This document shows, piece after piece, positions 368-12,060 of a stretch of 20,696 nucleotides of DNA. How positions within the stretch are numbered: the stretch's first letter is position 1; every line of letters begins with the position of its first letter. The notes below the pieces were generated by a model. That model was given only the letters and a program-made list of their open reading frames with translations. It was not told where the DNA came from and ran no database searches. Source of the stretch: a virus. The stretch lies in UHGV virus genome UHGV-0115176; one strand, given 5' to 3'. Position numbers and translations under genes: made by a program.

Positions 368-610
368 TCATGCTCCGGTGGTGAACAGGTCTAACGCTTC
401 CTTCGATTTACGCACCGCTTCGATAGTGCGGGTCGTGATATCTGAATTAGCGCCACCTGACTGGAAGTGAATTTTGAATAGCTCAAGCTTCAGCTCGTCA
501 GTGCCAATGAACTGAAATGCTTCTTCTGCGGCTGCGTTCTGGTTCATGACCAGCTTGTAAATCTCTAACTGGAATTTCTGTTCTTCAGTCATGGGAATAA
601 TCTCTGCCAT
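368..610 (-). CDS. Hypothetical small protein (80 aa) immediately upstream of the terminase gene
   Basis: ORF-track ORF; ATG start at 608-610 with GGAG-type SD upstream on the minus strand; position typical of a small gene preceding terS. Confidence 0.55.
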   Translation of the reverse strand: MAEIIPMTEEQKFQLEIYKLVMNQNAAAEEAFQFIGTDELKLELFKIHFQSGGANSDITTRTIEAVRKSKEALDLFTTGA

Positions 611-962
611 TGTTGGCTCCGTTTATCCGTTAAAAGGGATATCAGTTAAGTTATCCCGTGTAGGGTATAAGTCATTGTCGAGACCACTCATTGAATGGTC
701 TCTGCAATAACCGATGTCTTTCCATCAGTCCGCCACCACAAAGAATCTTTTTTGCCATAAGGCAGGAGGTTCATCTTTCAGTGGCTGCCAGTGTTATTTC
801 CCCACTTTCTGGCTTGGGTTGTTTCGCTGTATTGCCGCAACTGGTGGTGCACAGATTTAGTTAAATCTGTTCTCGCCTGAACTATCTTTTACATACCCGG
901 ATTGTGGGGATGTAAATCACGGTTTCATTATCAAGCCCACCCGTAGATGGGCTTTGGAATGG

Positions 963-1220
963 CTACTTCGCTTTTGCTTCCGCTCGCTTACGCCGGCGCT
1001 CTTCTTTCCTCTCGGCTTTTGCCATGTCCATGAATGCCTGCATGATCGAGTTCCGCATCATGTAGCTAACAAAGTGATGATTGACACAGCCGTTGAGGCG
1101 CAGCTGCTCGCCAAACTCATCCACCGAGGCCAATGCTTCCATCATGCCCTTCTCGCCTTTCATGAACTCTGAGAAGTCGCGCCCCGCTCTGGAGGCGCAT
1201 TCAATAACACGATCACTCAT
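963..1220 (-). CDS. Hypothetical protein (85 aa), Lys/Arg-rich C-terminus
   Basis: ORF-track ORF; its start overlaps the stop of the upstream KilA-N gene (ATGA-type overlap at 1217-1220), suggesting translational coupling. Confidence 0.55.
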   Translation of the reverse strand: MSDRVIECASRAGRDFSEFMKGEKGMMEALASVDEFGEQLRLNGCVNHHFVSYMMRNSIMQAFMDMAKAERKEERRRKRAEAKAK

Positions 1221-1714
1221 CCCGGAAGCCCGGGGATCGTAATCTGCAGCTGGTTAGCCAGGGAGTTAATCTCAGCGACCAACACTGGCTTCGTATAGCG
1301 CCATGCTGCCAGCCCTTGTCCGCAGAAGCTCGCCATGTCTTTCTTCTGGTCAAACTCATGACATTTCATGTTGAGCTGCGCACTTAAGCTGTTGCGATGC
1401 TGAAGTTCTCCGGTGAAGTAGTCATCGAGGACTTTATAGGCCGCGTACTTGAACCCGGGGTTTAACCAAGCCGCATAATCGTAAGCAACAAACTTCCCGC
1501 CATATGTTCCACCGTGTACACCGCGCTCAGTAAAAACCACAGATTCGTGGTTTTTCTCCAGCTCGGCTAAGAACTCTTTGGTCTGCTTGTTTCGCAGGTA
1601 GTGGTAAGGCGATTCAGATTCACTTTTACCACTGGCTTTCCACATATCAGTGAGGCAGATCATGCCATCTTCACCGATACGAATTGGTTGATTGAAGAGG
1701 GTTAATGATTTCAT
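1217..1714 (-). CDS. KilA-N domain DNA-binding protein
   Basis: 165 aa; N-terminus MKSLTLFNQPIRIGEDGMICLTDMWKASGK matches the KilA-N/APSES-type fold pattern from memory; ATG start at 1712-1714. Confidence 0.65.
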   Translation of the reverse strand: MKSLTLFNQPIRIGEDGMICLTDMWKASGKSESESPYHYLRNKQTKEFLAELEKNHESVVFTERGVHGGTYGGKFVAYDYAAWLNPGFKYAAYKVLDDYFTGELQHRNSLSAQLNMKCHEFDQKKDMASFCGQGLAAWRYTKPVLVAEINSLANQLQITIPGLPG

Positions 1715-1915: not shown

Positions 1916-2353
1916 TTATTTCAGGCATTGCGTCCTGATGTATTCCTGCAGGTAGTTAACCTGCGCGGTTATCCTGTCGATTCCACTTCTGAGACGGTAA
2001 TAATTGAGTTCAGCATCTGCTGTAAGTCTTGGGCTTTCTCCATCGCCCATGCTGCTGGCTCCGGTCGTTGACTTTGCACAGGTGGCGGCGACTTGCAGGC
2101 GCTTACGACCAGCAGAAACATCAGCACGGAGACTTTCGATAGTCGCGTTAGCATCAGCAAGCTCCTTTGTGTATCTGGCGTCAAGTTCTGCTACATCACG
2201 TTGACGCTTCTGCATGTCAGCAATTGTGGATGCGGCCTTATCGCGCTGCTCTTTGTAGGCGATTGCGTTATCACGGTAATGATTAACAGCCCATGACAGG
2301 CAGACGATGATGCAGATAACCAGAGCGGAGATAATCGCGGTTACTCTGTTCAT
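1916..2353 (-). CDS. Rz: Rz-type i-spanin (inner-membrane spanin)
   Basis: N-terminal TM helix ([23 protein letters not shown]) then a charged, coiled-coil-like periplasmic domain; ATG at 2351-2353 overlaps the endolysin stop (ATGA). The ORF-track start at 2365 is a GTG; the ATG is preferred. Confidence 0.8.
1969..2154 (-). CDS. Rz1: Rz1-type o-spanin lipoprotein, embedded in the +1 frame of Rz
   Basis: ORF 1969..2184 contains [20 protein letters not shown] (signal peptide with lipobox LVVSAC) followed by a Pro-rich short mature region; fully nested in Rz, the classic Rz/Rz1 arrangement. Start chosen at the Met preceding the signal peptide. Confidence 0.75.
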
Positions 2354-2853
2354 TGCTGACCCCACAAACAGATTTCACGCTCAATCTCACGACGAGTCAT
2401 GAGACCTTTCCATTGCTTACCGCCAGCATATGTCCAGCGACGTAGCTGATCACATGCACCTTTGATATCACCCTGGTTGATTTTGCGAAGAAGCGTCGAT
2501 GTTCTGAAATTGCCTGCGCCCACGTTATAGACGAACGAATAAAGAGCGCCGCGCGTTGTTTCCGGTATATCGACTTTGATGTACGGGTTAATTTGTCTGG
2601 CGACAGTGGCAAGGTCTTTATTCAAGAGTGCTTTGCATTCTGCTTTGGTATACGTTTTACCGAGCATGATGTCTTTTCCTGTATGCCCGTGACATACAGT
2701 CCATACACCAACAATATCTTTGTATGGTATGTAGCTGACACCTTCCAGGCCATCGTTACCACTTGGTCCAGTGATTAACACAGATGCTATAGCAATAGCC
2801 CCGCCACTTATCGCCGCTATTACGCTATTTCGTAGTGCCGGTGACATTGCCAT
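2350..2853 (-). CDS. R: SAR endolysin (phage lysozyme, P21 R-like)
   Basis: 167 aa; N-terminal signal-arrest-release segment [17 protein letters not shown] followed by a T4-lysozyme-type catalytic region; as I recall it is almost identical to phage 21 endolysin R21. ATG start at 2851-2853. Confidence 0.9.
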
Positions 2854-3028
2854 TCAATCTGTCCTCGCGCTCTTTGCGCTTGTAGTACCAGTTGATGCCA
2901 AATGTGCCGACAGTACAAAGAATACCAATGATGACAGCCCAGTCATTCAGGGAGAGAATGCCACCCATCGCAGTCAGTCCTCCGAAGCTGTAACTGAACC
3001 ATTCTCTGATTTTGTCCATACGGTACAT
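2825..3028 (-). CDS. S: Class II holin (pinholin-like) with dual-start motif
   Basis: 67 aa with two predicted TM segments and a charged C-terminus; begins MYRMDKI (Met1 and Met4 separated by Arg), the holin/antiholin dual-start pattern; overlaps the endolysin start by 29 nt. Confidence 0.8.
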
Positions 3029-3484: not shown

Positions 3485-3997
3485 TTAAACGGTATGATAT
3501 TTCATTCTGGCTGCCTCAAAAGCCGCAGCGGCAAGTTCGGCAGTGTCATGGTATCCAAGGTTAATACACTTTCCAGACGCATTAATTCTTGCTCTCCATT
3601 TCCCGTACTTAGCATCCCAAGACACGCCACGGTATCCAGATTTATTATTCTTCTGAATTTTCCTGTTTTGCATATTTTCGGAATGAGTGACAAGACGAAG
3701 ATTTGATATCCGGTTATCTGTTCTTACCCTGTTGATGTGATCAATAAAACCATCGGGCATGGTGCCATAAACAATCAACCATGCCAGTCTGTGAGCAGGG
3801 CATGCTTTACCATTAATCATAATCATTAAATACCCATCAGAATTTATTGATGAGCATTTCTTGAAAGCAAAACGAGAGTTCCATGTCAAAGTGGTCCTCT
3901 CTCTCCCCTGCCTCCATCTCCAGTGAAAGTCGCCTGATGATGGATTGTAATCAACAACAGAAAGCACCATTTCTGGCGTTAATTTTATTTCTTTCAT
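3485..3997 (-). CDS. HNH homing endonuclease with C-terminal AP2-type DNA-binding domain (copy 1)
   Basis: 170 aa; motif GFIDHINRVRTDNRISNLRLVTHSENMQN (HNH) then YRGVSWDAKYGKWRARI...GYHDTAELAAAAFEAA (AP2-like). ATG at 3995-3997 with AAGGT SD. Confidence 0.85.
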   Translation of the reverse strand: MKEIKLTPEMVLSVVDYNPSSGDFHWRWRQGRERTTLTWNSRFAFKKCSSINSDGYLMIMINGKACPAHRLAWLIVYGTMPDGFIDHINRVRTDNRISNLRLVTHSENMQNRKIQKNNKSGYRGVSWDAKYGKWRARINASGKCINLGYHDTAELAAAAFEAARMKYHTV

Positions 3998-4710: not shown

Positions 4711-5372
4711 GCGCCTTCTCCCTGTACCTGAATCAATGTGAGATTTCCGCAGAACACTGCGCCGGTATCGATATACATCTGGTTGGCAAATTTGAGCGGT
4801 TTCACTGCTGGCGTATGACCAAAGATGAACATGTCCGCGCCTTTGATTTCTTTCACGATCCCGTCTTGTGAGTTGCTGATTCGTTCGCGGTTCCAGATTA
4901 CCTGCTGATGATCAACTGGCTTTCCAAACTCGTATTCGTCACAAGGATAATCGGCGTGGCAGATGACATATTTTTTATCTTTGCTCACCAGTTCGATGAT
5001 TAACGGAAGTTCATCTGCTTTATGGGCAAGAGCTTTAGCCAGAATTTCTTTGTCGTAATCGAGATTAAAGAACCAGCCACCGCCATTAAGCAGCCAGTGA
5101 TTGACGTTTCCACGCTCTGATAAGCCATCAATCATCATGTGCTCATGGTTTCCACGTACAGCTCTGAACCAGGGGAATGTGATTAATTCCAGGCATTCAA
5201 CGTTCTCTGCACCACGATCAACCAAATCGCCAACCGAGATAAGCAGGTCTTTTTTGGTGTCGAATCCAATCGTATCCAGTTTGTTCATCAGGTTCGTGTA
5301 GCATCCGTGCAGGTCGCCAGCTACCCAAATATTTCGGTATTTGCTGCCATCAATTCTTTCGTAGATATTCAT
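4701..5372 (-). CDS. ninI: Ser/Thr protein phosphatase NinI (lambda PPase)
   Basis: 223 aa; metallophosphatase motifs GDLHG, GDLVDRG, GNHE; near-identical over its length to lambda NinI as I recall it; the ATG overlaps the ninG stop. Confidence 0.9.
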
Positions 5373-5980
5373 GCTGCCTCACTTCTGCTGTTTCGCAGAT
5401 TTTTAAGTTTCTGCTGATACTCCGCCTTGATGGCCCTGCACTCTTCGACAGTCCAGCGATGGCGGTTATGGTTTAATTCGATTTCGTCTACTGCTTCCTG
5501 CCCGATGCGATTAATCAGTTCGACGCGATACGGAACGAGATTTCCGCTTTTGTGCTGGTTGCACACCACGCATTGCTTGTGAATATTGCGTTCATCAAAT
5601 CGGAGTTGAGGTGCCGCAGCAGTTGTCCGGTAATGTCCGGCATCCCACTGAGCAGACGTGAGCGTTCCGCACGAGATACATGGTAAGTCGCGGTCTCTTT
5701 CTCTGATGAAGGCGTTTACGGCTTGTTGGGCTTGTTTAATCCAGTAACTGCGGGGCTTTAAGGCGAGTTTTCGAATCTTAAGTTTATCTTTCTGTTTCTG
5801 CTCCTCTCGTCGTCGTTTCTTCTCTGCTGCTTTTTCCGCTTTTTCGCGTTCTTTACTTCGTCGTTCGAGTGCTATCTTGGTTCCACACTCTGGAGAGCAC
5901 CACCACTGATTAGCGAATGCAGGATGAAACCATTCCCGACATTTATCGTTTTTACATCGTCTTCGCGCTGGTTTAGCCAT
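5369..5980 (-). CDS. ninG: NinG (Rap) recombination-associated protein
   Basis: 203 aa; [41 protein letters not shown]... essentially lambda NinG from memory. Confidence 0.9.
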
Positions 5981-10682: not shown

Positions 10683-10903
10683 GCTGCACCTCCGAGATGC
10701 TTCATGTTTTTTCCGGAGCGAAAGGCTATAAGCGGCATACTGACGCGGTAATTACGGCCCAGCGGTTCACAAACCACCTTCTGACATTCACGGTCAACCA
10801 GGCTAACACGTAGAACATGCCCTGCAGGCGTGGTGTACCACTGACCCGGACGAGGACAACGGAAAGTATGATTGGTAAACCGTTTGAAAATATTCCGGAT
10901 CAT
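10679..10903 (-). CDS. Hypothetical small protein (74 aa) with three Cys (possible zinc-ribbon-like)
   Basis: ORF-track ORF; 4-nt overlaps with both neighbours (ends 10900/10903 and 10679/10682) imply a translationally coupled operon member. Confidence 0.55.
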   Translation of the reverse strand: MIRNIFKRFTNHTFRCPRPGQWYTTPAGHVLRVSLVDRECQKVVCEPLGRNYRVSMPLIAFRSGKNMKHLGGAA

Positions 10904-12060
10904 TTGCGCCCCCTTACCTCTGAAGGGTTCAGCGACAAATTTATGAGACTGGCCAGTAGCGCCGCGTCGTTGATGCGGTCATACAGACTTACAGCCAGCG
11001 GGGATTCGGCTTTTGCCAACATGGGATAAAGCTGCTGCAGCCAGACCTTGTGGATTACCGACAGGTGGGAGTAAAGCACGCTGGCGTTATCTGCGGCATC
11101 GCTCAGCGTGGATGGCTTTGAAAGCAGTTTTTCCATCTGGTTAAAGGCATTTATGTATGCCTCTTTGAACCGGGCAGCACGTTTACCCGTGAAACCCATA
11201 GCAAGAAACGCAAAACCGTCTCGTGTGATTTGATAGCAAGGGAGCTTGCGTGTACCACCGTTCGGTTGATTTACCGAAATCGATGTCTCCGCAAAATTGC
11301 GGGCACAAAACTCTGGGGAACAATCCAGAGTGCGGATCTTTTTCAGCACATCGTCGTGACGCTTGGAGAAGAAGTTGGCAACAGCCAAAGAAGTGGTAAC
11401 GGCCTGGCCGTTGTCAATGGTGATTTCAGGTTGAGTGAGGGCTGGGATCGTAGCCATGATGGCAGCCTCCGTTGACAGTGAAAAACTTCCACCACCGGAA
11501 ACGCCAATTTCACTGGTGGTGAACTGGACGGGGTTGGCGTAACCGGCGTCAACGGAGACCGGCGCACCTTTCGGTGCCCCCGCCCAGCCCACCATAATCT
11601 GGATGTGAGCAAATGCGGACGATAAAAAAGACGCTGGCGCGTCATACATCGCCGTTGACAATTTCAGGACGCCAATCCCGGCACCCGCTTTATAAGGTGC
11701 CTGAGCAGTGTAACGTCCCGGAATTGCAGAATCAATATGCTGGTGGTCCTTCACACTCAACAAAATCACGCCTGAATTTCCACAAAGGACTAAAGCACTC
11801 ATGCGGGTAGTCTTTGCGAAGATAGATAACGCGCTGTGTTTCTGGCTCCCAACGAATAACATGGACATAAAGCCCTCTTCCGTCACGAAACCAGCGGTTA
11901 AGTTCCTGCACAACTCGCCCCCCACAGTCAGGTAAAGTTCTCTGTGGTTACTTACAGCCAGGTGATTTGGTAATCTGCATTCATGCCGTAACAACAGGTG
12001 TTCAGCGACGCTGACCACCAGCTGTTGCGACAAACGGTTATTTGCCGTTAAACTATTCAT
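10900..12060 (-). CDS. Rha-family phage regulatory protein, long ORF with a ~200-codon N-terminal extension (canonical Rha start at 11457)
   Basis: The segment from the internal ATG at 11455-11457 (GGAGG SD 8 nt upstream) reads MATIPALTQPEITIDNGQAVTTSLAVANFFSKRHDDVLKKIRTLD...ITRDGFAFLAMGFTGKRAARFKEAYINAFN, a Rha-type N-terminus. The same frame stays open for 201 further codons upstream to an ATG at 12058-12060 that overlaps the preceding gene's stop. Confidence 0.55.
   Translation of the reverse strand: MNSLTANNRLSQQLVVSVAEHLLLRHECRLPNHLAVSNHRELYLTVGGELCRNLTAGFVTEEGFMSMLFVGSQKHSALSIFAKTTRMSALVLCGNSGVILLSVKDHQHIDSAIPGRYTAQAPYKAGAGIGVLKLSTAMYDAPASFLSSAFAHIQIMVGWAGAPKGAPVSVDAGYANPVQFTTSEIGVSGGGSFSLSTEAAIMATIPALTQPEITIDNGQAVTTSLAVANFFSKRHDDVLKKIRTLDCSPEFCARNFAETSISVNQPNGGTRKLPCYQITRDGFAFLAMGFTGKRAARFKEAYINAFNQMEKLLSKPSTLSDAADNASVLYSHLSVIHKVWLQQLYPMLAKAESPLAVSLYDRINDAALLASLINLSLNPSEVRGRK

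Follow-up and report, generated by a model that had tools for sequence, protein, structure and literature searches.

The stretch of DNA analysed here (the window; 20,696 nucleotides of UHGV virus genome UHGV-0115176) carries at its left end the late operon of a P22-like/lambdoid prophage, read from the minus strand. In that direction the genes for a holin, a lysozyme and Rz are followed by those for a KilA-N protein, an 85-aa hkbL-like product, a DUF2560 protein (P22 orf80, HK620 hkbM) and a P22 gp3-type small terminase, TerS (Table 1). The DUF2560 gene was recognised by Pfam at 1e-43, and a Pfam search with the hkbL-like ORF gave no match. Between these last two minus-strand neighbours lies the gap that concerns us, the 352 bp at window positions 611-962. 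A prophage in E. coli VR50 matches the window stretch at 100% identity, and the sequence of 611-962 is 91-98% identical in about 200 phage records, including HK620, Sf6, P22, L, HK97, HK022, and mEp and Stx phages. Pieces of the region occur, unannotated, in 2557 of 5426 complete E. coli genomes.

A preliminary description of the gap had presented it as a noncoding stretch between two minus-strand genes, rich in dyads, and both points hold: there is no conserved ORF in 611-962, and the dyads are conserved in relatives. The dyad GAGACCA/TGGTCTC lies at 680-702 as described and is part of a pair of 20-nt arms (671-690/692-711); AAGCCCA/TGGGCTT is likewise correctly placed at 933-954, with arms that reach 926-939/948-961, and the T-run that had been mentioned is found at 748-753. 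Two further dyads exist but needed their positions adjusted, namely a near-palindrome given as 853-870 (true position 852-869, 1 nt off; arms 851-859/862-870) and GGGATA/TATCCC, given as 646-667 and located at 636-657, 10 nt away. A repeat search added a hairpin that the description did not mention, at 888-898/906-916.

Table 1. Features of the late operon and of the region 611-962, in the order of minus-strand reading (z, fold stability relative to shuffled sequences; R2, the covariance model introduced in the text).
Feature	Position	Strand	Remarks
Holin gene	2825-3028		Late operon, minus-strand reading
Lysozyme gene	2350-2853		Late operon, minus-strand reading
Rz gene	1916-2365		Late operon, minus-strand reading
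KilA-N protein gene	1217-1714		Late operon, minus-strand reading
85-aa hkbL-like ORF	963-1220	-	Upstream flank of 611-962; HP1 follows its stop codon
HP1	926-960	-	Two bases past the hkbL-like stop codon; z -4.0; R2 56.8 bits; covariation
M2	856-912		Optional module
HPb	888-916	-	UUUACAUcCCC...GGGuAUGUAAA; in optional M2; z -2.4
HPc	851-870	-	ACAGAUUU-AACU-AAAUCUGU; near-palindrome of the preliminary description; in M2; z -3.6
Core	713-846	-	Structured RNA module; near-invariant; likely relative of Rfam Proteo-phage-1
Cargo insertion point	711-713	-	Between core end and HP2; empty in the window
HP2	669-712	-	z -8.0; R2 core match 673-708, 58.2 bits
HP3	622-689	-	Three mutually exclusive predicted hairpins; z -2.2
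Shine-Dalgarno and start codon of the DUF2560 gene	608-620	-	GGAG 620-617, AUG 610-608, from sequence; directly 3' of HP3
DUF2560 gene (P22 orf80/HK620 hkbM)	368-610	-	Downstream flank of 611-962
P22 gp3-type small terminase gene (TerS)	Start at 332		Late operon, minus-strand reading

Folded as the minus strand, which is the sense strand of the late operon, the 352 nt reach -115.3 kcal/mol, against -82.5 +/- 5.6 in dinucleotide shuffles (z -5.9), and none of 100 shuffles was equally stable; the plus strand gave z -4.1. A scan of the region for promoters and terminators returned nothing above shuffle expectation. Rfam searches, run on the region at E <= 5, on the whole window at the gathering threshold and on the homologous loci, gave a single match for the region, a weak one to RF03044. 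CsrA GGA sites and DnaA or IHF boxes were considered from the sequence and dropped. A regulatory role, also proposed in the preliminary description, is plausible, as is one at the level of RNA. Elsewhere in the window, two Rfam matches at gathering level, a C4 antisense RNA (11512-11599, minus strand; 81.4 bits) and isrK (11624-11700, minus strand; 62.2 bits), lie side by side within a 386-aa ORF call (10900-12060, minus strand). The pair suggests an immunity or antirepressor control region of the P1/P7 c4-ant type or the Gifsy isrK type.

The region is a mosaic. Module edges were defined by query-anchored BLAST against about 115 related loci, in which sharp breakpoints recur at window 968/961, 920/913, 855-835, 713/708, 711/690/689, 659/652 and 622, delimiting five modules: HP1, the optional M2, the core, HP2 and HP3. 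Among about 110 related loci, M2 was found in about 30. Phage L has no HP3 and P22 no HP1, while phage 2851 has only HP1 and HP3, in the order hkbL-HP1-HP3, and Ss-VASD reads hkbL-HP2-HP3; because of these last two arrangements, M2, the core and HP2 can be said to behave as an inserted cassette.

Judged from their sequences, HP1 and HP2 are homologous and belong to one predicted hairpin family. HP1 has the layout CAUU-(CCA/GAU loop)-AAGCCCAUC-UACG-GGUGGGCUU-AAUG, and HP2 consists of an 8-bp lower stem, a conserved 2x2 internal loop (CA/GA), a 10-bp upper stem and an AAU loop. The form common to the family is AUUR-CA-RAG-stem-loop-stem-CUY-GA-YAAU, with a lower stem AUUR/YAAU and a covarying upper stem. 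We pooled 33 distinct copies, comprising HP1 types, two HP2 types and a third variant from related locus L030, into one alignment, in which 97.7% of cells are paired and both sides have changed in 7 of 13 pairs; these cells are not independent events, because paralogous copies were pooled. The covariation score of 0.403 compares with 0.199 in shuffles and was reached by none of 500 of them, and in slid controls pairing was at most 50%. By type there are 370 Watson-Crick pairs, 49 G·U, 2 A·C and 8 others. The excess of G·U over A·C implies that the fold has been selected in late-sense RNA, and not as a palindrome in duplex DNA or in an antisense RNA. HPc also shows a change of this kind, an A-to-G substitution in relatives that leaves a G·U pair in the late sense. 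The CA/GA loop is invariant throughout the pooled alignment; one L030 copy found later has CA/AU in its place.

That later copy came from searches with R2, a covariance model built on the HP family, which detects two copies and no others in the window, and likewise in HK620; a search of lambda found none. The idea that HP might be a genome-wide repeat was rejected, since in the window and HK620 it is present at these two places only and is absent from lambda. Divergent copies were found in loci L030 and L069, between Q and the holin gene, after an 81-aa ORF and an HNH-AP2 gene. As a covarying hairpin motif HP is new, and it marks the 3' ends of late-operon cargo cassettes. The window has an HNH_3 + AP2 gene of homing-endonuclease type upstream of the holin gene (3485-3997, minus strand). 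Its homologue at L030:5093-5611 (+) is flanked by HP-type hairpins at 5008-5042 and 5629-5663, and a search beside the window copy detected none.

The core is near-invariant. Its elements are a pairing of GCCAG (813-809) with CUGGC (791-787), a box GAAAUAACACUGGCAGCC (800-783), a closing helix GGCAGCCACUG/UGUGGUGGCGGAC that contains an inner hairpin, and a terminal hairpin P4, CUGAUG-GAAAGA-CAUC (728-713). Over window 721-820, nucleotide diversity among 108 distinct loci, collected with a search pattern that fixed 783-800 only, is 0.005-0.034, against 0.03-0.11 in the DUF2560 gene; part of this uniformity may be due to a recent spread through recombination, as opposed to purifying selection. 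The core was found in 1120 of 5426 complete E. coli genomes, nearly always at >= 95% identity, and in none of them is it annotated. Taken alone it is no more stable than its shuffles (z -0.8 and -1.5). Window-type sequences also turned up in metagenome-assembled genomes labelled Oscillospiraceae, Nanosynbacter, Bacillota and Collinsella (L130, L134, L135, L144, L145 and L147), which are probably mis-binned enterobacterial phage contigs. In locus L018 the core is broken in its A-run from about 10385 onward, and a downstream ORF begins MTKNTRFSPEV..., presumably orfA of an IS3-family transposase.

The one Rfam match of the region falls within the core: cmscan aligned 783-846 (minus strand) with RF03044, the Proteo-phage-1 RNA, at 17.6 bits (E 2.3), which misses the gathering score of 42, and a larger RF03044 search of the homologous loci gave nothing at E <= 10. 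Proteo-phage-1 RNA is an orphan family (Weinberg et al. 2017, PMC5737381). The shared box, used as a query against viral and genome collections, retrieved bona fide members at 55-82 bits from Pseudomonas-type prophages. There the RNA is flanked by NinG and a Q-like gene and, on its other side, by genes for a holin, a phage metallopeptidase and a DUF2280 protein that is likely the small terminase; as a rule one terminator precedes it, and a second terminator or tRNAs come after it. These RNAs run 70-125 nt past the 82-nt Rfam model (in L021, L026, L033 and others), in a multi-helix 3' domain and a hairpin with a GAAAGA loop that occur in long and short forms; the 3' domain covaries in 17 Pseudomonas-type loci. 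The Rfam model therefore appears to span only the 5' 82 nt of an RNA of 150-200 nt.

Compared with this extended RNA, the window core has the box GAAAnAACACYGGCAGCC, the complementarity AGCCRG/CYGGC, the closing helix GGCAGCCAsUG/..sUGGyGGrC built on GGCAGCC, and the terminal hairpin with its GAAAGA loop, and it too lies within the late operon of a lambdoid prophage, upstream of a hairpin or terminator. The RF03044 3' box gaAAaAACaCCGGCAGCC and its loop AGCCGG, which is able to pair with CCGGC, have their counterparts in GAAAUAACACUGGCAGCC and AGCCAG of the window, where the G-to-A change in the loop is matched by a C-to-U change in its partner; in about 10% of enteric core copies the GCCAG/CCGGC pairing contains an A·C mismatch. 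There are also differences. The window copy follows the lysis genes and does not lie between Q and holin, and HP2 comes after it in place of a U-tract terminator or tRNAs. The inner hairpin differs. For P1 and P2 cmscan aligns fragments only; no clear counterpart of P1 is seen, and P2 may be reduced to about 4 bp, CCCA/UGGG. A model of the 3' domain built from Pseudomonas loci alone (R1) has its best match in the whole window at 708-789 (minus strand), with a marginal E of 0.14, and this match rests partly on the 7-nt GGCAGCC, which was also a selector of the sequences.

A bridge between the two groups is provided by L162, a bona fide Pseudomonas-type member whose 5' domain scores 70.1 bits as Proteo-phage-1 and whose 3' end, GGCGGACUGAUGGAAAGACAUC, is identical to window 734-713 at 22 of 22 nt; BLAST of L162 against phage records gave only a weak Pseudomonas phage match. 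Within the enteric phages covariation gives no readout, because the core is too invariant there. When both groups are aligned jointly, pairing in the helices they share reaches 95.5%, and between the groups G-C is exchanged for C-G and G-C for A-U. On the strength of the shared features, the L162 bridge and these paired helices with their swaps, we assign the core, with reasonable confidence, to the Proteo-phage-1 family as a shortened enteric branch that stays below Rfam's formal threshold. Two other identities were set aside. A nut-like reading, with UCUUUG and the GAAAGA hairpin as boxA and boxB, fails in that UCUUU lies inside a helix in both branches. STnc6030 and the other BTP1 ncRNAs were rejected, as none of them maps between rha and pid, an interval for which RNA-seq of the BTP1 lysogen lists no annotated ncRNA; this null result is consistent with late-only expression, without being positive support for it.

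HP3, at 68 nt, is nearly invariant and the most widespread of the modules, occurring in Stx and cos phages too, and it ends 1 nt ahead of the DUF2560 Shine-Dalgarno sequence. Its GGGAUAA/UAUCCC repeats allow competing predicted hairpins, 3a (651-670), 3b (636-657, followed by UUUU) and 3c (624-641); the minimum-energy fold changes with the flanks included, and the centroid is undefined. P22 has an HP3 with the same repeat logic and other loops. The GGGAUAA and CGGAUAAAC repeats (622-670, minus strand) resemble the 3' end of the E. coli type I-E CRISPR repeat, GCGGGGAUAAACCG, and in cos-type relatives a downstream GUGCGGGGAUAAUC (L154, about 1985-2005) bears the same resemblance. A CRISPR kinship of HP3 was rejected, the stem being dissimilar and Rfam giving no CRISPR-DR match, and the resemblance is probably due to chance.

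Between the end of the core (...GGAAAGACAUC) and the HP2-type hairpin, at exactly this point, the relatives carry at least five unrelated types of cargo: a 23-aa ORF, a member of the Sf6 gp66/N4 gp49 family, a DUF551 gene, ORFs of 62 and 80 aa, and a trypsin-like peptidase accompanied by a partner ORF. Unrelated genes at a single coordinate in related phages are what characterises a moron or cargo hot spot. Each cargo (Sf6 gene 66, the 23-aa ORF, DUF551, the trypsin-like peptidase and others) ends with an HP hairpin, always 53 nt ahead of HP3, and several have their own intrinsic terminator just ahead of the hairpin. Examples are a 246-aa trypsin-like peptidase with a 59-aa partner at L070:9376-10408 (+), an Sf6 gp66/N4 gp49-family protein at L003:547-927 (-) and a DUF551 protein at L045:2801-3019 (+), for all of which accessory or defence functions are possible. 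The pid moron of P22 occupies this locus (PMC8835761); it is transcribed antisense and sits between HP2 and orf80, adjacent to the insertion point.

Our preferred reading, which we hold to be on balance probable, is that 611-962 is a transcribed noncoding part of the late operon that acts as RNA, a chain of independent modules in which the HP hairpins serve as punctuation. It starts from what was observed of the region, namely its structure and strand, its covariation and modularity, the hot spot for cargo, the relation of the core to Proteo-phage-1 and an independence from packaging type that is taken up below; to this the anatomy of the HP hairpins adds a possible role in processing or stability. 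In the long Q-antiterminated late transcript, an HP hairpin would mark the 3' end of every gene or cassette at this locus, and morons would enter between the core and the next HP. The hairpins may be processing sites, 3'-end stability barriers, or both; the predicted geometry of HP2, about 8 bp, a 2x2 loop and 10 bp, is like that of RNase III-type hairpins and would be compatible with cleavage of that kind. In this way they could give the upstream cassette a stability different from that of the DUF2560-terminase message downstream, and the core could be freed or stabilised as an ncRNA expressed late. The competing hairpins of HP3, beside the DUF2560 ribosome-binding site, may tune DUF2560 translation, and the conserved hairpin flanks might double as homology patches for the gain and loss of cassettes. 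A bolder version, to which we attach little credence, has a specific factor, from the host or the phage, recognise the HP hairpins with their invariant CA/GA loop and cut out, stabilise or insulate cassettes, and has the core, directly upstream of cargo terminators, acting in cis, in the manner of put, to sustain late transcription or translation across morons. If true, such punctuation with a put-like core would be the first function for the Proteo-phage-1 family.

The modular build could also be explained at the level of DNA, with the modules as recombination linkers whose flanks are homology patches or single-stranded hairpin sites and whose RNA structure is incidental. The sharp, recurrent breakpoints at module edges speak for this, as do the forms with recombined or deleted HP1/HP2 in 2851 and Ss-VASD and the single coordinate of all cargo insertions, and the very low diversity fits homogenisation by exchange. 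Homologous recombination, however, requires identity and not hairpins, and the covarying stems, the conserved internal loop and the 49:2 ratio of G·U to A·C indicate selection on a single-stranded fold in the late sense. Moreover, no site-specific recombinase is linked to the locus, and the Pseudomonas phages have relatives of the core at another operon position, with covariation of their own. Linkers are compatible with the RNA reading; as its replacement we consider them an unlikely explanation, albeit one with an appreciable chance.

Somewhat less chance is given to a role in transcription control, in which the hairpins would be terminators or attenuators that insulate morons, or the core a put-like element that helps late RNA polymerase to read through the cargo terminators that come after it. 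In both branches of the family a terminator or hairpin comes directly after the RNA, with the next late genes beyond; many cargos have an intrinsic terminator right ahead of HP2, which is itself labelled 'terminator' in two database records, and HP3b, a 6-bp stem with UUUU, competes with 3a and 3c. Set against this is the fact that HP1 and HP2 have no U-tract and are followed by GAUAAUG or GACAAUG. A G+C-rich stem with a U-tract, as expected of an intrinsic terminator, is not present on the late strand, HP3b being borderline; the scan gave one plus-strand candidate and none at HP1, HP2 or HP3, at or below the level of shuffles, and the region has no similarity to any Rfam antitermination or leader family. 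In lambdoid phages Q-modified polymerase ignores terminators.

That the region is decayed or unrecognised coding sequence is very improbable. Small ORFs are annotated here in database records (P22 'orf25', the N-terminus of ST64T 'orf118'), and one of two 28-aa minus-strand ORFs, 672-758, begins AUGGCAAAAAAG and ends beside HP3. Against such a reading, neither this ORF nor the other (688-774) has a Shine-Dalgarno sequence, a 6/7-A length polymorphism frameshifts both in several relatives, 1-nt indels occur upstream, the variable codon reads L, Q or P, there are radical substitutions, and conservation is at the nucleotide level across all codon positions. Neither orf25 nor the orf118 N-terminus combines a conserved frame with start signals. 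In the orf118 of phage L/ST64T (L005:801-1157, minus strand) the 28-aa ORF region is fused in frame to the DUF2560 homologue, and because this fusion was created by deletion of HP3, orf118 is probably an annotation artefact. On the plus strand, AGGAGG (764-769) followed by GTG at 781 and a hydrophobic 27-aa peptide was rejected on account of 1-nt indels and non-conservative changes.

Least credible of all is a packaging signal, be it cos, pac or an accessory terminase-binding site, as the preliminary description had suggested. The region does lie just upstream of the DUF2560 and small terminase genes, HP3 contains GGGATAA-type repeats, and in cos phages HP3 is 0.5-0.8 kb from the genome end. 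Yet near-identical sequence precedes unrelated packaging modules: HK620 has the region at 96% identity, and BLASTP shows no similarity between the HK620 TerS and the gp3-type TerS of the window; the region is also found in Sf6 and in the cos/HNH phages HK97, HK022 and 2851, that is, in headful and cos phages alike. HK97 packages from a cos site, and in both HK97 and 2851 an HNH endonuclease gene stands beside the terminase genes. Modules are gained and lost without a change of terminase, the sequence of the region is neither specific to its cognate TerS nor covarying with it, and its structure is strand-asymmetric, of RNA type. The P22 pac site we take to lie inside gene 3. The P22 pac consensus AAGATTTATCTG (used and mapped in Casjens 1987 and Wu 2002, as cited in PMC10996546) and the 22-mer have no match in 611-962; with up to 2 mismatches the consensus matches only at 53-64, inside gene 3, at chance level. 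The preliminary description had named a packaging site elsewhere, together with a lack of conservation of the dyads, as what would speak against its proposal; the first part applies, but the dyads are conserved, whatever the packaging type.

Setting this packaging lead aside as false leaves elements that are present in the classic model phages P22, HK97, HK022, HK620 and Sf6 and in roughly one fifth to one half of complete E. coli genomes, and that the records examined do not annotate. Through the core, an orphan Rfam family is extended from Pseudomonas prophages to genetically tractable enteric phages, and the precise coordinate of cargo insertion is useful for finding accessory and defence genes and for phage engineering.

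Among known systems, the locus is closest in setting to moron loci such as that of P22 pid (PMC3573128, PMC8835761), with which it shares the position between the lysis/rha genes and orf80 and, in relatives, cargo genes with their own terminators at a fixed point. The window differs in having neither cargo nor pid, and keeps the conserved noncoding scaffold. This scaffold of the moron locus has not been described before. Integrons offer another parallel, their attC sites being the hairpin sites of gene cassettes. Here, too, a gene has behind it an imperfect hairpin whose outer arms are conserved and whose centre varies, and cassettes stand in tandem; the region differs in having no integrase and no attC R/L box consensus, and the evidence favours RNA over a recombination substrate. 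The RNase III sites R1.1-R5 of T7, lambda sib and REP-type 3' barriers are hairpins for processing or stabilisation between cistrons. Like the HP hairpins, they are long and imperfect, with an internal loop, and are located at the 3' ends of genes without a U-tract, in the same arrangement of about 8 bp, a 2x2 loop and 10 bp. What appears peculiar to HP, known here from its sequence, is the conserved CA/GA loop together with the AUUR/YAAU flanks.
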